64,000 bases of DNA, taken from positions 40,197 through 104,196 of the forward strand of contig JAEEYF010000089.1 of the NCBI GenBank assembly GCA_016291655.1, read 5' to 3'. The position numbers and the translations under genes are program-made. Shown piece after piece: positions 3,918 through 57,750 of this stretch; within the stretch, counting starts at the first letter, position 1, and every line of letters starts with the position of its first letter. This DNA is from Lachnospiraceae bacterium. GTDB taxonomy: Bacteria; Bacillota; Clostridia; Lachnospirales; Lachnospiraceae. The notes under the pieces are model-generated. The model saw only the letters and a list, made by a program, of their open reading frames with translations. It made no database searches and was not told the origin of the DNA.

Positions 3918-3977
3918 GGTTACCTCGATTCTTAATCTCTTATTATAACACAGATCCCATTTTTGGGGTAGTGTGAA

Positions 3978-4075
3978 CCTTGGGGACGGGGTTAGGGGTT
4001 CATCGCAGGTAAATTTTTGTCCTCTTTCCCCATGCGGGGAGGGGAAAATGACACCACAACCCCGTCCCCGGGGTT
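3978..4075. repeat. MITE/REP-like element, copy 1: terminal inverted repeats ccttggggacggggtta ... tgacaccacaaccccgtccccgggg about 100 bp apart
   Basis: Same GGGGACGGGGTT/AACCCCGTCCCC core as the copies at 15836, 43000, 54023 and 54281. Sits in the divergent uvrB/NUDIX intergenic region. Confidence 0.6.
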
Positions 4076-4152
4076 CATTTCCGAAATATTTGATTGACTT
4101 AGGTGAAGCGGAATAATAAACTTACAATAATAATAATACAACGGGAGGATTT

Positions 4153-5732: not shown

Positions 5733-7286
5733 ATGACACAGGAAAAGATTTTGGTCCTTGACTTCGGAGGACAGTATAATCAGCTTGTTGCAAGGCGTGT
5801 ACGTGAATGCAATGTTTATTGCGAGATCGCATCCTACAAGACGCCCATTGAAAAGATCAAGGAAATGAAGCTTAAGGGCATAATCCTTACAGGCGGTCCA
5901 AACAGCTGCTACGAGGAAGGGGCACCAACCTATTCAAAGGAACTCTTTGAACTGGGCATTCCCGTGCTCGGACTTTGCTACGGCGCTCAGCTTATGAGCC
6001 ATGTATTGGGCGGCAAGGTTGAAAGGGCTGCTAACAGAGAATATGGCAAGACCAAAGTTTATGTGGATGGTGAAAAAGGCATAGGCGGACTGTTTGACGG
6101 CATTCCTTCCGAAACCGTGGTCTGGATGAGTCATTTTGATTATATATCAAAAATTGCTCCGGGTTTTGAGATCCTGGCACATACGGACAATTGTCCGGTT
6201 GCTGCGGCAGGAAACGGAGTTAAGAAATTATATGCAATACAGTTCCATCCTGAGGTGTTGCATACAGAAAAGGGAAAAGAGATCCTCTTTAATTTTGTGC
6301 GCAAGATCTGCGGATGTGCGGGCGAATGGAGAATGGATTCCTTCGTAGAGCATTCCATAAAGGAGATACGCGAAAAAGTCGGAGACGGTAAGGTTTTGCT
6401 GGCACTTTCGGGCGGCGTGGATTCGTCTGTTGCGGCAGGCTTACTTTCACGGGCTATCGGTAAGCAGCTTACATGCGTATTTGTGGATCACGGTCTTCTT
6501 CGCAAAAACGAGGGAGATGATGTGGAAGCGGTTTTTGGACCCATGGGAAATTTTGACCTCAATTTCGTACGTGTTAATGCTCAGCAAAGATACTATGGCA
6601 AGCTGGCAGGAGTTTCAGAACCCGAAAGAAAGCGTAAGATAATCGGGGAAGAATTCATACGTGTATTTGAGGAAGAGGCAAAGAAGATCGGCAGAGTGGA
6701 TTTCCTTGCTCAGGGAACCATTTATCCTGACGTTGTTGAATCAGGCCTCGGCGGAGAGTCTGCTGTCATAAAGTCCCATCACAATGTGGGCGGACTTCCG
6801 GATTATGTTGATTTTAAAGAAATCATTGAACCTCTTCGCAATCTGTTTAAGGATGAAGTCCGTAAAGCCGGACTTGAGCTCGGACTTCCCGAAAAACTTG
6901 TGTTCCGGCAGCCCTTCCCCGGTCCCGGACTTGGCGTTCGTATAGTGGGAGAGGTCACGGAAGAGAAAGTTCGCATTGTTCAGGAGGCAGACTTCATCTA
7001 TCGCGATGAGATTGCCAAAGCCGGACTTAAGAAATTGCCCGATCAGTATTTCGCAGCTCTTACAAACATGCGCTCCGTCGGCGTTATGGGTGATGAGAGA
7101 ACCTATGACTATGCAGTGGCACTTCGTGCGGTAAACACCATTGATTTCATGACCGCAGAGGCAGCGGAAATCCCCTTTGAAGTTCTTCAGAAGGTGATGA
7201 GCCGTATCATAAACGAGGTCCGCGGAGTAAACCGCGTATTCTACGACCTGACGAGCAAACCGCCGGGTACGATAGAGCTCGAGTGA
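5733..7286 (+). CDS. guaA: GMP synthase (glutamine-hydrolysing)
   Basis: N-terminal class-I glutamine amidotransferase (LGLCYGAQL), an ATP-pyrophosphatase P-loop SGGVDSSV, and the characteristic C-terminal dimerisation domain. Full-length at 517 aa. Confidence 0.95.
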
Positions 7287-9471: not shown

Positions 9472-9529
9472 GCAAAGGCTTGATTTCAAGGGCTTCCTGT
9501 GTTATAAAGTATGTGTTTAACTGAATATA

Positions 9530-9825
9530 AAGCATGTTCGGTTCCGGAGAGATCCGGATCAGGGGGAAGTTCGGTGAAAATCCGTCGCAACCACCATTAC
9601 CGTGATCGGGCGTGAGCCCGTAAGTCGGAATACCTGCCGAACTTGTAAGGTTAACCGCTTTGACCTTTGTATCATCAAAGTGAGAGTGGACATTTTTGGG
9701 TAAGAAGAATGCAACCGTTTGTCGTTCCGGGACAGTGCCTTAACAGGCAGTGTCTTGGTTTAGTTTGCGTGCGAGAAACAGTTGCGTTTTGTTATCCTTA
9801 AGGAAAACAAAACGCTTTTTCTGTA
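9530..9825 (+). promoter_or_regulatory. Cobalamin (AdoCbl) riboswitch with expression-platform terminator
   Basis: GGTGAAAATCC motif plus a B12 box AAGTCGGAATACCTGCC (consensus rAGYCMGgAgaCCkGCc). A terminator hairpin gcgttttgtt...aacaaaacgc followed by TTTTTCT lies at about 9783-9822. B12-uptake genes follow directly. Confidence 0.75.
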
Positions 9826-13552: not shown

Positions 13553-15165
13553 ATTTTACATATGCCTTGGGGAACAAGCCGGCATTGAAGCAGGTGAGTT
13601 TTAAGGTTTCACGCGGTGATCTTGTCACCGTCTGCGGAGCTACGGGATCGGGGAAATCCACTCTTTTAAGGCTTCTTAAAAAGGAGCTCTCGCCCGTGGG
13701 AAAGAAAGAGGGAAGGATACTCTTCAAAGGAAAGGATCTCGATTCCATGTCCGTGAGGGAGAGTGCTTCCGCAATCGGTTTTGTGATGCAGAAGCCGGAG
13801 CAGCAGATTGTGACCGACAAGGTGTGGCACGAGCTGGCTTTCGGTCTTGAAAATCTGGGCGTGGACAACGCTTCCGTAAGAAGGCGCGTGTCGGAGATGG
13901 CAAGCTATTTCGGCATAGAAAGCTGGTTTGAAAAAAGCGTTACGGAACTTTCGGGAGGACAGAAACAGCTTCTTAATCTGGCGGCTGTAATGGTGATGCA
14001 ACCCGAGGTGCTTCTGTTGGATGAGCCCACAGCTCAGTTGGATCCCATAGCGGCAGCGGATTTTATGGCTACGGTGGCAAAGCTGAACAGGGAATTGGCC
14101 CTGACGGTGATAATTACCGAACACAGACTGGAGAATGTGATCTCCGTTTCGGACAAGCTCATGGCATTGGACAAGGGAGAAGTGAGGGCTTACGGAAAAA
14201 CCGGGGAAACGGTAGCGGAACTGACAGGTGAAAAGACCTTGCTGGAGGGTATGCCTGCAGCGGTAAGACTTTATGCGGGATTAAAAAACGCGGGAGTTCC
14301 CATGAAAGGGGAGTGTCCTTTGGATGTGTGCGAAGGACGCCGCTTTATAGAAAGCAATTTTCCGAATCATATAGATACATTGAGCTTGAAAAAGAGAAAA
14401 AGAAGTGACGAAACGGTCCTGAAGTTTACGAATGTATTTTTCAGGTACGAAAAAAATATGCCTGATGCGGTCGGAAACATGAACTTCGAGGTGCACAGAG
14501 GCGAGATCTTCTGTCTCCTCGGAGGAAACGGTTCGGGAAAATCCACCACCCTTTCTCTGGCAGCGGGAGTAAGGAAAGCCTATGCGGGAGAGATCAGGAT
14601 ATTCGGCAAAAGGCTCAAGGATTACAAGGCAGGATCTCTTTACAAGGGCTGCGTATCCATGCTTCCACAGGATGTTCAGACGTTGTTCATAGCGGATACG
14701 GTGAAAGAGGAACTGGAGGAAGTAAGATTCAGACCGGAGCTCCTGCCCTTCGATCTTTCACAACTTTCAGAGCGTCATCCCTATGACCTTTCGGGCGGTG
14801 AACAGCAATTGCTCGGACTTGCGAAGGTGATGGCATCGGATCCCAAACTGCTGCTTCTGGATGAGCCCACAAAAGGGCTGGATGCATATGCAAAAAAGGA
14901 AATAGCGGGAGTTTTGAGGAAACTCAGAGACCGTGGGGTGACCATAGTGTTTGTTACCCATGATGTGGAGTTTGCAGCTGCGCTGGCAGACAGATGCGCT
15001 CTTGTATTCAGGGGAGAAGTGACATCGGAAGGAGAGACCGCCGGCTTCTTTTCGGAAAATAGCTTTTACACTACGGCCGCGAATCGCATGACCAGAGGCT
15101 ACTATAACGGCATCCTGCGGGTTCGCGAGGCTGAGGAGATCATTAAATTAAATGTTTGTCATTAA
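13525..15165 (+). CDS. ecfA: ECF transporter ATPase, fused EcfA-EcfA' (two ABC domains)
   Basis: Two Walker A motifs (GATGSGKST, GGNGSGKST), two ABC signatures (LSGGQKQ, LSGGEQQ) and two Walker B motifs (LLLDEP). 546 aa. Confidence 0.9.
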   Translation: MEIFRVEDLNFTYALGNKPALKQVSFKVSRGDLVTVCGATGSGKSTLLRLLKKELSPVGKKEGRILFKGKDLDSMSVRESASAIGFVMQKPEQQIVTDKVWHELAFGLENLGVDNASVRRRVSEMASYFGIESWFEKSVTELSGGQKQLLNLAAVMVMQPEVLLLDEPTAQLDPIAAADFMATVAKLNRELALTVIITEHRLENVISVSDKLMALDKGEVRAYGKTGETVAELTGEKTLLEGMPAAVRLYAGLKNAGVPMKGECPLDVCEGRRFIESNFPNHIDTLSLKKRKRSDETVLKFTNVFFRYEKNMPDAVGNMNFEVHRGEIFCLLGGNGSGKSTTLSLAAGVRKAYAGEIRIFGKRLKDYKAGSLYKGCVSMLPQDVQTLFIADTVKEELEEVRFRPELLPFDLSQLSERHPYDLSGGEQQLLGLAKVMASDPKLLLLDEPTKGLDAYAKKEIAGVLRKLRDRGVTIVFVTHDVEFAAALADRCALVFRGEVTSEGETAGFFSENSFYTTAANRMTRGYYNGILRVREAEEIIKLNVCH

Positions 15166-15838
15166 GGATCGGACAATAAGAAATATTATCAGATTTGCTG
15201 TTCCGTTTTTGCTGATACCTGCGGCGGTGGCTGTTGGAGTGTTTGTATTCGACGACAAGTCATATGCCTTTGTGTCCCTGGCGGTTGCGGGGCTTTCGGT
15301 GCTGCTCTTTACTGCCGGATTCGAACGCAGGCGCACGGGAACAGGGCGCATGGCTGTGGTCGCCGTGATCGTGGCACTGACCGTGGTGGGGCGTTTCATC
15401 CCCTACTTTAAGCCGGTGGCGGCGCTGACAGTGATCGCAGGCATATATCTTGGCAGCGAAGCGGGCTTTCTCGTGGGGGCCTTGGCAGCGGTGATCTCCA
15501 ACTTCTACTTCGGTCAGGGACCCTGGACACCCTTCCAGATGCTGGCATGGGGTATGATAGGCCTGATCGCGGGCTTTTTGGGCGAGATTTTAAAACGCAG
15601 CCGTGTTTCGCTTGCCGTATACGGTGTTTTTTCGGGTGTTTTCTTTTCTCTTGTGATGGATGTTTGGACCGTTCTCTGGTATAATAAAACATTTGACGGA
15701 AGCATGTATCTCGCGGCATTGGTCACCGCTGCGCCTTACACGGTCCTCTATGCGGTTTCCAACATATTTTTCCTGATGGTGCTGAAAAAGCCTTTCGGAG
15801 AAAAACTTGAACGCATATGCATAAAGTACAGATTATGA
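15152..15838 (+). CDS. ECF transporter substrate-specific (S) component, probably cobalamin-specific (CbrT-like)
   Basis: 228-aa six-TM protein immediately after ecfAA'. Context: B12 riboswitch plus DUF4430 proteins. The CbrT assignment rests on context only. Confidence 0.6.
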   Translation: MFVIKDRTIRNIIRFAVPFLLIPAAVAVGVFVFDDKSYAFVSLAVAGLSVLLFTAGFERRRTGTGRMAVVAVIVALTVVGRFIPYFKPVAALTVIAGIYLGSEAGFLVGALAAVISNFYFGQGPWTPFQMLAWGMIGLIAGFLGEILKRSRVSLAVYGVFSGVFFSLVMDVWTVLWYNKTFDGSMYLAALVTAAPYTVLYAVSNIFFLMVLKKPFGEKLERICIKYRL

Positions 15839-15905
15839 CACCACAACCCCGTCCCCGGGTGTCAAATGAACCCCGGTGAACCCCGGGGACGGGGTTGTGG
15901 TGTCA
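15836..15905. repeat. REP/MITE-family palindrome, copy 2 (tgacaccacaaccccgtccccggg ... ccccggggacggggttgtggtgtca); probably also acts as a terminator of the ECF operon
   Basis: Perfect 24-bp arms with a 21-nt loop containing a tandem tgaaccccgg repeat, followed by TTTTT. Confidence 0.7.
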
Positions 15906-15926
15906 TTTTTACGGAGGTATGTTTAT

Positions 15927-17524: not shown

Positions 17525-17690
17525 CCGATTCTTCGTAAAAAAGGCAAACTCTTTCTTCTCACATCCAGACTATACTGTCGGTACCGGAATTACACCGGTT
17601 CATGCACCAAGGCTCGCGGACTTTACCGCCGGTAGGGAAATTTCGTCCCTCCCCGAAGAATCATTATTAAATTACAGGGGGAATTCTACT
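17525..17690 (-). promoter_or_regulatory. FMN riboswitch (RFN element)
   Basis: The minus-strand sequence GGGGAGGGACGAAATTTCCCTACCGGCGGTAAAGTCCGCGAGCC...CCGACAGTATAGTCTGGATGTGAGAAG matches the RFN consensus (GAAATTCCC-ACCGGCGGTA, CCGACAGT-AGTCTGGATG-GAGAAG). Confidence 0.85.
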
Positions 17691-42999: not shown

Positions 43000-43023
43000 A
43001 TGACACCACAACCCCGTCCCCGG
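43000..43023. repeat. REP/MITE-family half-site, copy 3 (tgacaccacaaccccgtccccggg)
   Basis: Single arm of the dispersed repeat, upstream of the Crp/Fnr gene. It would lie inside the spurious N-terminal extension of the ORF-track call at 42961. Confidence 0.6.
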
Positions 43024-43041
43024 GTATCAAGGAGAAAGACC

Positions 43042-49576: not shown

Positions 49577-50064
49577 CTTCGGAAAAAATGATACAGAAAG
49601 TTTTTATGGTTTTTATATTGAGATAAACCGTAAAAGATGGTATACTTTAGCCATCCTGAGGTGTACGACAACTCCTTGCTATTTTGAACCTACAAAACTT
49701 TAAACGGGATTCCTAATTGCGTGACGGATGTCAGGCCGCAACTTCATCGCCGGCCTTCGGATTGGACGAAGATCTTCTTCATTCAATCCGAAGGTCGCCG
49801 CAGCGGAAGACAGCAAATCAGGCTGCGGTTACCCACCTGGCATGATGCTAGGAGTCAAAATGCGGGAAACGGCACTTTGGGTTTTTTGTTACTTTCAAAG
49901 CGATCATTTTTTTGGTCGCATTTTTTTAATGAAACGTTAATGAGTTTTTTACGAGTTATATAGATATGATAACTTTTATTTTAATCATACAGTTTTACAC
50001 TGTCGGTAGGTGAGCGTTGGAATGTTGATTTTCAACGGCCGGCCGATTTTTGGAGGGTAAGTTT

Positions 50065-52202: not shown

Positions 52203-52830
52203 AAAAGAAACTTTTAACAGATTGTTATTGCTTGCCGGAGCCGCGGGACTGAATTTTGCGGGTTATTTTGCCGGAAGGATCATTGCACACGACTTCAGGC
52301 ATTTTGATTTTACGACGCCGATCGATGAAATGATCCCGTTCATTCCCTGGACGATCATGATATACTGGTTGGGATACGGGCTTTGGGTGGCAAATTATTG
52401 CCTTGGCACTTTTTATGACAAAAGCGGCTATAACCGCGCATTGCTGGCTCACTATATGGGCGAGGTGGTATGTTTCCTCTGCTTTGTATTTCTTCCCACA
52501 ACGATGACACGTGCGGAGATCGCGGGTACAGGCTTCTTTGATCGCTTGATGATGGGAACCTATACGGTGGACAGTGCGGACAATCTTCTCCCCTCAATCC
52601 ATTGCTTTGTGAGCTGGATCAGCTGGATAGCGGTCAGAGGTAATGACAGGATTCCAAAGTGGTATCAGGTTTTCTCCTTCATTTTTGCCGCAGCAGTATG
52701 TATCTCCACAGTAACGGTAAAGCAACACGTCGTTCTTGACATAGTTACGGGGATAGGACTTGCCGAGCTTTGCTATTTCCTGGCTGGGAAGATCGGAAAA
52801 GCATACTTGAATAAAAAACAGGGTAAATAA
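52192..52830 (+). CDS. PAP2-superfamily membrane protein (phosphatidic-acid-phosphatase / inositol-phosphotransferase-like)
   Basis: PAP2 motifs PSIHCF and VKQHVVLDIV (SRxxxxxHxxxD-type). Last gene of the lipid cluster. Confidence 0.7.
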   Translation: MKIKKETFNRLLLLAGAAGLNFAGYFAGRIIAHDFRHFDFTTPIDEMIPFIPWTIMIYWLGYGLWVANYCLGTFYDKSGYNRALLAHYMGEVVCFLCFVFLPTTMTRAEIAGTGFFDRLMMGTYTVDSADNLLPSIHCFVSWISWIAVRGNDRIPKWYQVFSFIFAAAVCISTVTVKQHVVLDIVTGIGLAELCYFLAGKIGKAYLNKKQGK

Positions 52831-52858
52831 GATTTTGGAAAGTAAGGGAATTTAAAAA

Positions 52859-53983
52859 ATGAAGAAGATCATTCTAATGCTCTCGGTTGCTGCGCTTGTT
52901 GCGCTGGCAGGCTGCGGAGAAGGAAAGGCTGAACCTACACCTTCACCGACGATCACGCCGACACCGACGATCACGCCGACACCGACCAACACGCCGACAC
53001 CGACCAACACACCTACACCAACGAACACACCAACACCGTCACCGACTCCGTATGTTCACGTCAGCTCAGATGATATATCTTACGGAGACACCTTTATAGT
53101 GGAGCTGGTCAATGCCGAAGTTGCCACACAAGAGCTTCTCAATGAAAGTGTATTGAAGTATAACGGTAACGGGGAATACTATGCACACGGTACGGGAAAC
53201 ACCATTATTACCGTTACCGACACCAATGGGAATGTTTATGAGGTTGAGATCCAATCCTTGCCCGTGCAGATGGAGGTGGAGTTAACCTACAGTGACTGGA
53301 ACGATGATAATATCTCCTATTATGATACGGTGGTTAAAGGAAACTACTACGGAGATATGAAAAACGATCTTCCGAACGGAAACGGAAGTTTTAAGGCTCT
53401 TGACGATAGCTTTACATATAAGGGCGGATTTGTCGACGGCTTTTTCCAAGGTTGGGGTTGTATGGAAAAGTTTTCCGGTAAATTGAAAATAAGAGACAGC
53501 TGGTTTGAAAAAGGTCTGTTCACGCCCACAGCTTTGGATACGATCAGATTATTTTTTAAAGAAGCATATAACGCGTCCGTGCCTGAAACAAGTTTGAACA
53601 ACATCTCCATGAATTCAATGTACTTCAATGAGACCAGGGATTTTCTTGACAGTAAGGCAACGATTGCAGATCTGAATGATGTTGAAAAAAGAGTTCAATC
53701 GTATTTAGGCGACTTCCATTTAATCAAAGATATAGAACTGTCATATAGTTACGAAGGCGTACTGTTCGGACAGAAAATCAGTCTTCTGGAAGGCTACAGT
53801 AACGGACATCATGTCTACGGCATTTATCCGGGAACCAATGAATGGGATGTGGGAGATATTGTTGATATCTACGCATTCCCCATAGGTTTGTTGCTAATGC
53901 GAAACGGAGCAACCGGCGGCTTCGAGATCATCACAACCTACATACCTGCGCAAGTATACAAAAAAACAGACGCAGATTTATAA
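52859..53983 (+). CDS. Lipoprotein with a TPTPTxTPTPTN linker and a beta-rich (Ig-like) domain
   Basis: Lipobox LAGCGEG and repeated PTPT(I/N)TPTPT. Confidence 0.7.
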   Translation: MKKIILMLSVAALVALAGCGEGKAEPTPSPTITPTPTITPTPTNTPTPTNTPTPTNTPTPSPTPYVHVSSDDISYGDTFIVELVNAEVATQELLNESVLKYNGNGEYYAHGTGNTIITVTDTNGNVYEVEIQSLPVQMEVELTYSDWNDDNISYYDTVVKGNYYGDMKNDLPNGNGSFKALDDSFTYKGGFVDGFFQGWGCMEKFSGKLKIRDSWFEKGLFTPTALDTIRLFFKEAYNASVPETSLNNISMNSMYFNETRDFLDSKATIADLNDVEKRVQSYLGDFHLIKDIELSYSYEGVLFGQKISLLEGYSNGHHVYGIYPGTNEWDVGDIVDIYAFPIGLLLMRNGATGGFEIITTYIPAQVYKKTDADL

Positions 53984-53996
53984 TTCACATCAAAAA

Positions 53997-54019
53997 AAGA
54001 CCGCGCAGGTCTTTTTTTG
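53997..54019. terminator. Bidirectional intrinsic terminator
   Basis: aagaccgcgcaggtctt followed by tttttg. Confidence 0.75.
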
Positions 54020-54022
54020 ATA

Positions 54023-54305
54023 CCTTGGGGACGGGGTTATGGTGTCAAAAAATGACACCATAACCCCGTCCCCGGGGGCTCAATTTCAGGCAGCCACACT
54101 TAGCGACGGAATCCGTGTTTTCGTCCGTTTCCGACGCGGGCTTTTAGGTTGCACCCCATGATTCCCGCAAACACTGCTGAGATCGGAGTAACAGGGTCAC
54201 GTGAAATTTTGTGCATTACCCCCCGCGCGGGAGAATGTGGTGGGAAGAAAAACATGTGAGGACAAAAAATTACCTGTGATGACACCATAACCCCGTCCCC
54301 AAGGC
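54023..54305. repeat. MITE-like element (283 bp) bounded by 25-bp terminal inverted repeats CCTTGGGGACGGGGTTATGGTGTCA / TGACACCATAACCCCGTCCCCAAGG
   Basis: The left end is itself a perfect hairpin (ggggacggggttatggtgtca-aaaaa-tgacaccataaccccgtcccc, 54026-54072). About 200 bp of internal sequence contains no credible ORF. Same repeat family as 3978, 4049, 15836 and 43000. Confidence 0.65.
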
Positions 54306-54369
54306 TCATTCTTTACATTTATTCTGCGGTGGGATAAAATATTTGGCAGGAATCAAGCGGGAGGGAAAC

Positions 54370-57300
54370 ATGAGCCTTCGACCTATATTGGGACCCGCAG
54401 GCAGCGGGAAAACAAAAAAGCTGTTTGAAACAGCCATAAAAGAAGCGGAGAAGAATCCGGAGACAACGTATTATTTTCTTGTGCCTGAACAGTTTTCGCT
54501 CCGTACACAATATGACCTGCTGTCGGTACATCCGCAGGGAGGCATATTAAACATCGACGTGACCAGCCTTGCAAGGCTTGCAAATGCCGCTTTCGCTAAG
54601 CTGTCGGGGATGAAGCACGAGTTTATTCCCGAGATCGGAAAGAGCATGATAATTAAAAAGGTCCTGAACGATAACAGCGAGAAGCTGGTTATGTATGGGA
54701 GAAATTCGCGACATACCGGCTTTGTGGCCGAAGCTAAGGCTTTGCTTTCCGAGCTTCTGCAGTACGGGGTTACGGAAGAGGACCTGAAGGATTGTATGGA
54801 AAGGGCGGGAAATGAGCCTGTGCTTCAAAGGAAGCTGAAGGATGTGATCACCTTGATCTCAGGTTTCAAGACCTGTCTCGGAGATCGCCTGCTTACGAAT
54901 GAGAGTATGTATGATGCTTTCGCGGCCATCCTTGAAAAAAGCGGGCTTGCACGGAATGCGGTGTTCATCCTGGACGGCTTTACAGGCTTTACCCCTTCGC
55001 AGAACGGCATACTTCGTGAATTTCTGCGCCTCGGAAAAGACGTATGGGTTTCCTTTACGATAGATGAAGCCGCTTCAAAAGCGGTTCTTCCGGAATACGA
55101 TCTCTATCATATGAGTGCCGAAGCTCTGCGTAAGCTGACCGAGCTTGCGGAGGAAGTGGGTTGCGATGTAAAGGCGCCCGTATATACAAACCATAACAAG
55201 TATGAGACCGAGACACTCCACAGGCTGGAACGCGGTCTTTTCAGACACGGAAACAAGAAGGTTCCGGCGGGTGACAGTCTCGTTATTTATAATGCGAGCA
55301 ACATCGAAGAGGAAACAAAGCGTGCGGCGGCTGAGATAGAGAGGCTTGTAAGAAAAGAGGGCTACCGTTACTCGGACATAGCCATAGTGTGCGGCGATAT
55401 GGATCTGTACGGTGAACGTATGTGCAATGAACTGGATGTTATCAGAGCACATTATTTCCATGACCGTAAAAAGACTCTTCATGAAAATGAGTGCTCGGGT
55501 TTTCTTGAGATCGTTCTTAAACTGATGGAAAAGGGAGCGGACACGGAGCTCCTGATCGCCTATGCAAAGAACAGTCTTTCGGGCATAGTTTATGACGACG
55601 CGTGTCTTCTGGAAAACTATTGCGCCGCTTTCGGGACAAAGGGAGGCTCCTTCAGCCGAGAATTCAAAAGGGAGTTTTACGGAAGACAGGACATTTCGCT
55701 TGAACATGTGAATGAGGTGAGAAAGCAGATAATGAGCGAACTGTCGGGAATGCTCAAAGTGAAGAAGAACAAGGCACGGGTGTTCTCCGATAAGGTGCTC
55801 GCTTTTCTTGAAAAGTTGGGGGTTGAAGAAAAGCTTAAGAAGATAGCGGAGGATTTTGAACAGAAGGAAGAATACCTTAAAGCCAAGGAATATGCGGGGG
55901 TATATGAGGCTCTTCGGGAAATTCTGGATCAATCCGTTGAATTTCTCGGGGATGCAGAGATGACTTCATCGGAATACAGGGGACTGATCGAAGCGGGGCT
56001 TTCCGAAGCGAAGGTGGGCCTTGTCCCTCACGGCTCCGACAACATAATCATCGGAGATATAGAAAGGACGAGACTCAGCCGCGTAAAGGCGCTGTTCCTT
56101 TTGGGAGCCAATGAGAACAAGCTGCCGAAACCCTCGGGCGGTCACGGGATCATAAGCGACAATGACAAGAAAAGTCTGTTGAGCAAGGGCATAGAACTTT
56201 CGCCTTCTCATCTCAAAAAGGTGGGAAATGACAAGTTTTATATTTATCTCACTCTTACCAAGCCTACCTCCAGATTGTGGATATCCTACCCTTCTTTAAG
56301 CGGAAGCGAGAGAGTTAAGCCCGCGGCGGTATTGAATGAGATCGCAGAGTTATATACGGATCTGAAGCCGATCCGTAGAGAGGATCTGGATCCGGTTACC
56401 GGAGTTCTGGAAAACGATCTGGGCCTCAGGATGCTTTTGGCAGAGGAAAGACGGGAAAACGAGCATAGGATCAAGACCACGGATTATGTACCGGAGACCA
56501 TCTCTGCTGCGGAAGCGGAAGGGCTCTACGGGAAAACGCTCACCGGCAGCATTTCGCGCCTGGAAACCTTTGCAAACTGCCCTTTCAAGCATTTCCTAAG
56601 CTACGGTCTGGGAATAGAAAAAAAGGCCAGCTACAGGCTTGAAAGCTCAGATTTCGGTGAGATATCCCATGCTGCCCTGGAAATGTACGGACGGGCCGTC
56701 AGAGAAAGCGGAAGGGACTGGGTTTCCATTCCCGATGACGAGAGGGAAAAACTGATCGCCGAGTGTGCTTTCAATGCGGTCAACGATCACAAGAAGGGCG
56801 TATTTAAGGACACCTCCAAGAATAAATACATTGCTGACAGGATCAGGGATGTGCTGACCCTGACGGTTGAGATGTTCACCGAGCAGCTTAAGGATACCGA
56901 CTTCAGACCCTATGCCTTTGAGCAAAAGTTCAAGGTGCCCGGAGACAGGTTTATCCTTAACGGAAAGATAGACCGTATAGATGTATGCGATACGGAGAAT
57001 CTGAAGGCGGTCAAGGTGGTGGATTACAAATCCGGCAGCCACAGATTTGACCCGGAAAAGCTGTATTACGGTCTTTCATTGCAGCTACCCACCTATCTGA
57101 ACGTAGCTACGGAGATGATGAGTCCCGGTATCAAAGGCATAGAGGGAATGAAGGCGTCCGAAAGAGTGAAACTGAAGACCCAAAGGCCCGAAGGCTACAG
57201 ACCTGCGGCTATGTTGTATGATATTATCAACGATCCCGTATTGGATAACACCGGAAAACCGTCGGATGACAGCGAAGAGGTACGGGCAGCGGTCAGGGAA

Positions 57301-57750
57301 GCGATAAAGAAGGAGTTCAAACCCTCAGGCCTTGTCAATGAGGATCAGACTATCGTAAAAAGTCTCGATCATGCATTCGGAGAACAGGGAGAGGAGATAC
57401 GCGGCAAAGTTTCTTCTTACAAGATCCCGGTAGAGACCAACACAAAGAAAAACAATTCAAGTGAGCCTCCGGCTTACAGTGCGCACTCGGCCGTAATATC
57501 CGAGAAAAACCTGAGGATGCTGATGGAATATGCCGTTGATAAAATGGGATCCGGAGCACGGGAGATCATGGCGGGAAAAACAGCCAAGACACCCGTAAAA
57601 GACAAGGACAGCAGTGCATGCAAATATTGTGATTTTAAGAGTGTATGCGGCTTTGATCCAAAAAACGGAGACAAAGAAAAACGGCTTAAGAAGATGGACG
57701 GGGAAGAACTGCTGGAGAAGATGACCAAAGGAGAAACGGAAAATGGCTGA
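54370..57750 (+). CDS. addB: ATP-dependent helicase/deoxyribonuclease subunit B (AddB/RexB)
   Basis: N-terminal Walker A GPAGSGKT. C-terminal RecB-like nuclease with Fe-S cysteines (CPFKHF...CKYCDFKSVCGFD). RBS GGGAGGG before the ATG at 54370. Confidence 0.9.
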   Translation: MSLRPILGPAGSGKTKKLFETAIKEAEKNPETTYYFLVPEQFSLRTQYDLLSVHPQGGILNIDVTSLARLANAAFAKLSGMKHEFIPEIGKSMIIKKVLNDNSEKLVMYGRNSRHTGFVAEAKALLSELLQYGVTEEDLKDCMERAGNEPVLQRKLKDVITLISGFKTCLGDRLLTNESMYDAFAAILEKSGLARNAVFILDGFTGFTPSQNGILREFLRLGKDVWVSFTIDEAASKAVLPEYDLYHMSAEALRKLTELAEEVGCDVKAPVYTNHNKYETETLHRLERGLFRHGNKKVPAGDSLVIYNASNIEEETKRAAAEIERLVRKEGYRYSDIAIVCGDMDLYGERMCNELDVIRAHYFHDRKKTLHENECSGFLEIVLKLMEKGADTELLIAYAKNSLSGIVYDDACLLENYCAAFGTKGGSFSREFKREFYGRQDISLEHVNEVRKQIMSELSGMLKVKKNKARVFSDKVLAFLEKLGVEEKLKKIAEDFEQKEEYLKAKEYAGVYEALREILDQSVEFLGDAEMTSSEYRGLIEAGLSEAKVGLVPHGSDNIIIGDIERTRLSRVKALFLLGANENKLPKPSGGHGIISDNDKKSLLSKGIELSPSHLKKVGNDKFYIYLTLTKPTSRLWISYPSLSGSERVKPAAVLNEIAELYTDLKPIRREDLDPVTGVLENDLGLRMLLAEERRENEHRIKTTDYVPETISAAEAEGLYGKTLTGSISRLETFANCPFKHFLSYGLGIEKKASYRLESSDFGEISHAALEMYGRAVRESGRDWVSIPDDEREKLIAECAFNAVNDHKKGVFKDTSKNKYIADRIRDVLTLTVEMFTEQLKDTDFRPYAFEQKFKVPGDRFILNGKIDRIDVCDTENLKAVKVVDYKSGSHRFDPEKLYYGLSLQLPTYLNVATEMMSPGIKGIEGMKASERVKLKTQRPEGYRPAAMLYDIINDPVLDNTGKPSDDSEEVRAAVREAIKKEFKPSGLVNEDQTIVKSLDHAFGEQGEEIRGKVSSYKIPVETNTKKNNSSEPPAYSAHSAVISEKNLRMLMEYAVDKMGSGAREIMAGKTAKTPVKDKDSSACKYCDFKSVCGFDPKNGDKEKRLKKMDGEELLEKMTKGETENG

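Follow-up and report, generated by a model that had tools for sequence, protein, structure and literature searches.

A cluster of 30-bp REP-like repeats upstream of addB in a Lachnospiraceae bacterium and its probable partnership with a Y1 transposase

The intergenic spacer upstream of addB in the 64,000-nucleotide stretch of Lachnospiraceae DNA analysed here (hereafter the window) carries inverted repeats at both of its ends and a hairpin at one of them, which raises the question of what is being repeated: one element with two termini, or several smaller units that happen to share a spacer. The preliminary description of this DNA favoured the former, a 283-bp MITE-like element at 54023-54305, and mentioned a dispersed REP-type family as the alternative. 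We consider it probable that the region 54018-54308 holds a 30-bp REP-like repeat three times over, two units as a head-to-head doublet and one alone, that these were placed downstream of a terminator and ahead of the addB promoter with ~170 nt of unique DNA between them, and that the repeat family has as its partner a Y1/HUH transposase of ~258 aa (RAYT/TIRYT type, C-terminal HTH), encoded by a single-copy gene that two inverted units bracket in turn.

Starting from its upstream side, the spacer follows a gene on the + strand (52859-53983) for a 374-aa protein, for which no Pfam domain is on record and no homologue was found at E <= 1e-20 in a search of 5.8 billion proteins. The terminator-like hairpin and T-run of this gene occupy 53989-54021 (+ strand; AAAAAAAGACC-GCGCA-GGTCTTTTTTT, with arms complementary at 14 of 14 positions), and the T-run is both abutted and overlapped by the first repeat unit. 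This unit a (54018-54047) lies on the - strand, where it reads TGACACC AT AACCCCGTCCCC AA GGTATCA (nhmmer E = 4e-9). An AAAAA linker (54048-54052) joins it to unit b on the + strand (54053-54082; TGACACC AT AACCCCGTCCCC GG GGGCTCA; E = 1e-10), and the two units together make a REPIN-like hairpin with this linker as its 5-nt loop: 54023-54047 pairs with 54053-54083, perfectly over the 21 bp of GGGGACGGGGTTATGGTGTCA and at 87% over 31 nt, and the doublet as single-stranded DNA folds at -31.6 kcal/mol (z = -9.5). Unit c (54280-54308, + strand; TGACACC AT AACCCCGTCCCC AA GGCTCA; E = 5e-10) ends 3 nt before the -35 hexamer of a promoter-like site for addB, TTTACA-17-TAAAAT (54312-54340, + strand), which matches at 10 of 12 positions and is conserved in relatives that have no units. 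The downstream gene (54370-57750, + strand; 1126 aa) carries the ADDB_N (PF21445) and PDDEXK_1 (PF12705) domains, in agreement with its preliminary assignment as addB. The 25-bp inverted repeats noticed earlier are equally real, 54023-54047 and 54280-54304 being complementary at 25 of 25 positions, as is the hairpin at the left end.

The DNA between the doublet and unit c behaves differently from the units. The spacer at 54083-54252 matched only itself by blastn against the window and 70 related loci, and the interior has no match in the rest of the window, in 523 kb of related loci, in Rfam or in plasmids. Repetition is confined to the final ~22-26 nt (GAGGACAAAAAATTACCTGTGA), which reappear as an optional long linker, CATGTGAGGACAAAAAATTACCTGTGA (54253-54279, + strand), that precedes a subset of units; it is found again at window 4003-4024, in reverse complement, and in loci L018, L045, L052, L062 and L065. 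We considered 54083-54252 as a carried cargo or small RNA gene that would be part of the repeated feature and rejected this, as 54078-54279 recurs only in those last ~22-26 nt. The ~170-nt non-coding segment 54083-54252 also contains a weak terminator-like site with a T-run (54123-54141) and a CCCCCCGCGCGGGAG hairpin that resembles those found before long linkers at other loci. At L062 (~6290-6340, reverse strand), four tandem copies of GGGGCATGT adjoin a long linker and a unit.

Within the window, GGGGACGGGGTT occurs eight times against 0.32 expected, and the 21-mer TGACACCAYAACCCCGTCCCC, with up to three mismatches allowed, eight times against 0.00 expected. A profile built from 141 related copies (nhmmer) recovered exactly these eight units, with no weaker or degenerate extras. 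They lie at four sites, all intergenic, so that the preliminary description was right about their location but too low in its count of six arms. Besides the addB cluster, a ~100-bp site in a divergent intergenic region (site A) has a left arm on the - strand (3974-4002; head variant TGAACCCCT; E = 2e-8), a right arm on the + strand (4049-4077; E = 3e-11) and the long linker on the - strand (GAGGACAAAAATTTACCTGCGA, the reverse complement, at 4003-4024), which is homologous to 54258-54279 with 20 of 22 positions identical. The next site is a tail-to-tail pair, 15836-15864 (+) and 15877-15905 (-), whose fold reaches -35.3 kcal/mol and between whose units the tail piece TGAACCCCGG is duplicated in two copies; the unit at 15836 overlaps the end of the ORF 15152-15838, the TGA of its head TGACACC supplying the stop codon. 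Lastly, a solo unit on the + strand (43001-43029; E = 2e-9) immediately precedes the next gene's ribosome-binding site and its ATG (43042). The window as a whole is 100% identical to the metagenome contig JAEEGI010000628.1.

Alignment of ~140 distinct copies defines a unit of 30 bp, TGAnnCC-AY-AACCCCGTCCCC-RR-GGnnTCA, in which an invariant 12-nt core stands between a head (TGAnnCC), followed by AY, and a tail (GGnnTCA), preceded by RR, and AAAA precedes ~70% of the units. Head and tail are in form inverted repeats of each other, the layout being that of a 12-nt core within a 16-nt 'loop' with weak 7-bp arms, TGAnnCC/GGnnTCA, on either side. As single-stranded DNA a single unit folds weakly (-2.4 to -9.5 kcal/mol), and a covariation count found the variable positions of head and tail to be uncorrelated (28 complementary against ~25 expected); for this reason we do not claim a conserved hairpin for the single unit. 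GTAG at the foot of a hairpin is absent from both strands of the unit consensus, and GTGG occurs solely in the 'C' variant of the unit, at the junction of loop and 3' arm. With a palindrome this poor and the GTAG tag missing, the recognition mode of E. coli TnpA_REP cannot simply be copied to this family. The tail together with the last C-run of a unit is often tandemly duplicated (for example CCCCGGGGTTCAT twice, or TGAACCCCGG twice), as seen at window 15865-15886 and in L025 (1055-1100), L035, L065 (~800), L008, L032 and L045 (6820); these duplications may be the footprint of slippage or repair at unit ends.

Neighbouring units are arranged with considerable regularity. Adjacent units keep a core-to-core gap of 22-23 nt whether they stand head-to-head, tail-to-tail or in direct orientation, and arrays of up to seven units are phased at 35 bp, direct (head-to-tail) neighbours making up 21 of 42 close pairs. 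Ten head-to-head doublets have a 5-nt A/T linker, and in all 10 the two heads are identical, one rare variant pair included, against a background frequency of 0.23; the tails were identical in none of 11 tail-to-tail doublets. Doublets fold at -31 to -35 kcal/mol. At L064 (2946-3185) seven units, split four to three between the strands, make up a single giant palindrome with the GC-rich centre TTTTTCGGCGCAGAGCGCCAAAA.

Exact-pattern scans located the family at seven loci in genome records and 63 metagenome loci, and all seven genome-record loci belong to Lachnospiraceae MAGs from rumen, horse faeces and similar sources. Among 181 copies, ~87% of those that could be classified are intergenic, though ~84% of the DNA is coding (~16% non-coding), and many of the copies scored as lying in an ORF fall at over-extended ORF ends. 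At L007 (6555), L012 (1778) and L019 (3221), exact 21-mer matches without the usual tail fall within long ORFs, perhaps by chance or as insertions into the genes. By spacer type, 44 copies are antisense and 38 sense in co-directional spacers, 29 lie in divergent and 19 in convergent ones. Copies occur roughly once every 8 kb in this uncultured rumen Lachnospiraceae genome (~125 per Mb in the window), and a search of viral contigs and plasmids returned zero copies of the unit. The solo copies have their G-rich strand on the leading strand, as judged by GC skew, in 52 cases against 27, in loci that are partly redundant and with a G-rich motif that may itself follow the skew, so that we attach little weight to this modest bias. 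Flanking sequences gave no target-site duplication signal, identical flanks of k = 4 numbering 23 against 20.8 +/- 3.2 in shuffled data; the excess at k = 5 (12 against 7.5 +/- 2.2 shuffled) is due to the A-run linkers. Enzymes of the HUH/Y1 type, such as the TnpA of IS200/IS605 and TnpA_REP, act on single-stranded DNA without target duplication, and the missing duplications are what would be expected of them.

A cognate, REP-associated tyrosine transposase of the IS200 superfamily, for which the preliminary description had suggested a search, exists among the loci of the family. The lead was a tblastn search with approximate IS200 and RAYT queries, which pointed to an ORF in L065 located 67 nt from a unit. 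This ORF, shared by L065 and L077, encodes a Y1_Tnp protein (Pfam E = 1e-13), available at full length as P0121 (257 aa). Against the NCBIfam model NF047646, 'REP-associated tyrosine transposase', P0121 scores 85.3 bits and passes the cutoff of 80; with the IS200 model it reaches 22.6 bits and fails the cutoff of 55. When a profile of 26 homologues was searched against the PDB, the sole match was E. coli TnpA_REP (4ER8), with the HUH and YIxxNPV motifs aligned. Residues ~220-257 of P0121 match HTH_28 (E = 1e-4), HTH_7 and HTH_23, all below the Pfam cutoffs, and this C-terminal HTH segment is conserved across the 26-sequence alignment. More than 1,200 homologues exist; among the matches listed they are mostly ~259 aa long, and the named sources are Butyrivibrio or Lachnospiraceae. 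A second tblastn match, in L025, was discarded as a chance match to xylose isomerase, and the genes bracketed by units at a distance of 1474 nt in L029, L038 and L040 proved to be ordinary genes.

The relation of this gene to the repeat is the same in each of seven independent loci (7 of 7): an inverted unit lies ~85-110 nt upstream of the ATG, and a second unit overlaps the stop codon. The transposases of these loci are 57-100% identical and comprise P0121 (L077/L078), P0122 (L079; 88% identical to P0121), P0123 (L080; 68%), P0155 (Butyrivibrio sp. AE3003, L082; 63%), P0134 (Butyrivibrio sp. AE2015, L083; 66%), P0232 (L085) and P0190 (L086). Their bracketing units have the same core, apart from one substitution in L085; the arms are TGGnCCA in Butyrivibrio and TGAACC in L080 and L086. 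In the gene ends inspected (L077, L079, L082 and L083), the transposase gene terminates in the TGA of the unit, for example at L077 3772-3774, or, in Butyrivibrio, in the TAA of the core. The gene appears to be single-copy and to keep its genomic neighbourhood: each transposase protein cluster is found on 1-4 contigs, L077 and L079 share an ABC transporter, an amylase and a response regulator as neighbours, and neighbours are conserved across 88% and partly across 68% transposase identity. There is no tnpB present, and the 64-kb window itself has no Y1 transposase gene. P0121 is nevertheless present in the same metagenome assembly as the window, on a 124-kb contig whose tetranucleotide composition correlates with that of the window at r = 0.963, against 0.979 between the window's own halves and similar values for other candidate contigs; composition and shared assembly are thus compatible with an origin of this contig from the window's genome, without being decisive.

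The orthologous spacer in two relatives supplies the empty site that the preliminary description proposed to look for. In L075 (MAG RUI274) and L076, whose AddB proteins are 73% and 71% identical, the gene order and the addB promoter are kept, and in the alignment the spacer upstream of addB measures 153-171 nt and contains zero units. The genome of L075 carries the repeat family at other places. These spacers are ~110 nt shorter than that of the window even with the units subtracted. In the position of the 374-aa gene, L075 has a gene for 366 aa, and in L076 it is absent. We saw neither transposition nor excision products, nor any site polymorphic for the units within a species; the empty sites belong to species with AddB 71-73% identical. 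Two short-read contigs, L072 (window 52569-54043) and L073 (52657-54031), stop inside unit a, as expected at a multicopy repeat, and the contig of L074 (AddB 91% identical) breaks off in the addB promoter spacer, 51 nt upstream of addB. The repeat family appears to fragment MAG assemblies of Lachnospiraceae.

How should these observations be read together? Let us take the initial assumption of a classical non-autonomous MITE, 283 bp long with 25-bp terminal inverted repeats and mobilised whole by a DDE enzyme, from which the 100-bp copy at 3974-4077 would have arisen by deletion. The perfection of the 25-nt inverted repeats agrees with it, as do the terminal units and ~22 nt of subterminal sequence that site A and 54018-54308 have in common. 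Such an element, however, should bring its interior along, and ~170 nt of that interior are found nowhere else; nor does a TIR-bounded element predict units that exist as solos and in all three orientations, direct tandem and tail-to-tail ones included, at a fixed gap. With target-site duplications also absent, zero viral or plasmid copies, and a Y1/HUH enzyme as the sole transposase tied to the units, we regard a 283-bp MITE as extremely improbable, and the 283 bp are not what is repeated. Bacterial MITEs such as RUP, Correia/NEMIS, ERIC and Bcr1 resemble the present sequences in being small, intergenic and bounded by inverted repeats, and in that they can carry or abut promoters and terminators, but they have a fixed length, a conserved interior and target-site duplications and are moved by DDE enzymes, none of which applies here. 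The Y1 fold of the transposase (Pfam Y1_Tnp) and its gene's position between inverted units might instead suggest that the units are the ends of an ordinary multicopy IS200/IS605 element, the dispersed copies being decayed ends (palindrome-associated transposable elements). Against this are the outcome of the model searches, in which the IS200 equivalog model failed and the RAYT model passed, the restriction of PDB matches to TnpA_REP, and a gene that is single-copy with conserved neighbours; units far outnumber genes and tnpB is missing. We give this alternative very little credence.

Two further possibilities place the units in the service of the host. They could be a cis-regulatory RNA or terminator motif selected for function and not mobile, and the strong folding of the doublets, some followed by a T-run (15899-15910), together with the several solo units just upstream of a ribosome-binding site (43001, L001 and L004), points in that direction. 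The units show no strand preference relative to flanking genes, however, and the ratio of 44 antisense to 38 sense copies argues against a dedicated cis-regulatory RNA, as does their presence in divergent spacers. In Rfam, searched at the gathering threshold over the whole window and with relaxed settings over 53900-54450, no family matched the element (best score 24.6 bits, cutoff 70). The stem within the unit lacks covariation, the orthologous addB leaders of the relatives manage without units, and the transposase bracket would be left unexplained, so that we hold a purely regulatory origin to be very unlikely. Alternatively, the units might be arrays of binding sites for a host DNA-binding protein, or a signal of the DNA-uptake type, with the transposase link being secondary. 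A core that is invariant across genera while the stems vary, the strict 35-bp phasing and the modest strand bias of solo units relative to GC skew would be in line with this, but units, in contrast to uptake sequences, are nearly absent from coding DNA, a candidate host protein did not emerge, and the transposase's own HTH could account for the conservation of the core; we assign this possibility hardly any probability. Likeness to KOPS, Chi, DNA uptake sequences, integron attC sites and Tn3-type inverted repeats was dismissed for misfits of orientation, density, coding exclusion or sequence.

What the dispersion and the bracket of the transposase gene point to is a REP/BIME-like family, as the preliminary description had offered in its alternative, and from these features we infer its spread by a RAYT/TIRYT-type transposase. 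By analogy with the HUH/Y1 enzymes discussed above, the transposase would recognise the unit on single-stranded DNA, probably via the invariant core and possibly by means of its HTH, and would cut and rejoin one strand without generating a target duplication. New copies might thereby be seeded preferentially beside existing units or beside A/T runs such as those of terminators, and seeding of this kind would give rise to the fixed 5-nt linkers. The hairpin doublets, once established, could secondarily serve as mRNA 3'-end or terminator structures, and expression may be influenced by doublets next to terminators as well as by units that abut promoters, ribosome-binding sites and stop codons.

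Among the systems described in the literature, the TIRtron/TIRYT class comes nearest, in our view. TIRtrons are RAYT-like genes flanked by inverted repeats with the motif GGGGWSAS (Di Nocera et al. 2013, PMC3733652), and certain TIR repeats make up families of moderate abundance, with single copies, dimers and clusters (PMC3733652). The TIRYT class has been equated with TnpA_Y1 subclass 2.1, which has C-terminal HTH domains and for which REP-like sequences were not found nearby (Quentin et al. 2018, PMC6006769); GGGGWSAS is present in 'the majority' of cases, not in all (PMC6006769). As in that class, the present gene is RAYT-like, longer than E. coli TnpA_REP and provided with a C-terminal HTH (weak HTH_28 and HTH_23 matches), its flanking inverted repeats, which are rich in G-runs, stand at a conserved distance from it, the one on the 3' side overlapping the end of the gene, and copies of this repeat are also scattered singly, as dimers and in clusters. 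GGGGWSAS agrees with the reverse complement of the core, GGGGACGG, at seven of eight positions, position 7 being G and not A; the L085 variant of this motif is GGGGACGGAG. The family departs from the class in its abundance, since ~125 copies per Mb in the window are nearer to classical REPs than to the 'moderately abundant' TIR families, in the bracketing of the gene by REP-like units, in contrast to the report on subclass 2.1, and in its host phylum, the Firmicutes. Neither Firmicutes nor Lachnospiraceae are mentioned for TIRYT or subclass 2.1 in the text of PMC3733652 and PMC6006769 or in the part of the PMC3733652 supplements that was covered. A further survey notes for Group 1 RAYTs, with flanking 16-mers of low abundance, that they are 'also found in the Clostridia' (PMC5581495).

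The comparison with the REP/BIME-RAYT systems and REPINs (PMC2817692, PMC3116915) is similarly mixed. Short, extragenic, high-copy units, inverted doublets that form long hairpins, clustered and phased arrays, a single-copy Y1 transposase bracketed by inverted units (the REPtron arrangement), the lack of target duplication and the passing of the NCBI RAYT model are all common ground. The present units differ in having no unpaired 5' GT[AG]G tag and only a weak single-unit palindrome, and in the conservation of the core between genera; an additional HTH is found in the enzyme; and direct pairs, rare as neighbours in BIMEs, are common here. What is known of the biology of REP/RAYT systems and REPINs comes, to our knowledge, almost wholly from work on Proteobacteria. 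The surveys cited report neither REP nor TIR families from Firmicutes, and a literature search of incomplete coverage found no published description of the 30-bp repeat family, which is apparently a REP/RAYT-type system undescribed in Lachnospiraceae.

Combining these points, we tentatively propose a wider reading, although we consider it somewhat doubtful when taken as a whole: this may be the first pairing of an abundant REP-like repeat with a domesticated Y1 transposase documented in Firmicutes, kept across genera of rumen Lachnospiraceae (with transposases down to ~57-60% identical) with an almost invariant 12-nt core while the arms drift, with the C-terminal HTH, not a GTAG-tagged hairpin, perhaps giving recognition, and with arrays that would lengthen as new units insert beside existing ones, in either orientation, at a fixed 5-nt A/T linker. 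If this is true, the HTH-bearing enzymes of subclass 2.1, reported without nearby REPs, would gain a defined DNA partner. Of specialist interest are the conservation of the 12-nt core, an enzyme that bears an HTH, and the phylum of the host. The pairing of a 12-nt invariant core with a ~258-aa enzyme is easily searchable, and because the family is present in cultured Butyrivibrio (AE3003 and AE2015), experiments can address directly how enzymes of this subclass recognise their DNA. On the practical side, the repeats break short-read assemblies of rumen Lachnospiraceae, and these breaks, together with units set against promoters, ribosome-binding sites and stop codons, make the family matter for MAG quality and the annotation of gene ends.

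Elsewhere in the window, and unrelated to the repeats, Rfam returned matches above the gathering score for a cobalamin riboswitch (9522-9655, + strand; 51.4 bits), an FMN riboswitch (17549-17664, - strand; 100.5 bits) and 6S RNA (49650-49887, + strand; 57.7 bits).
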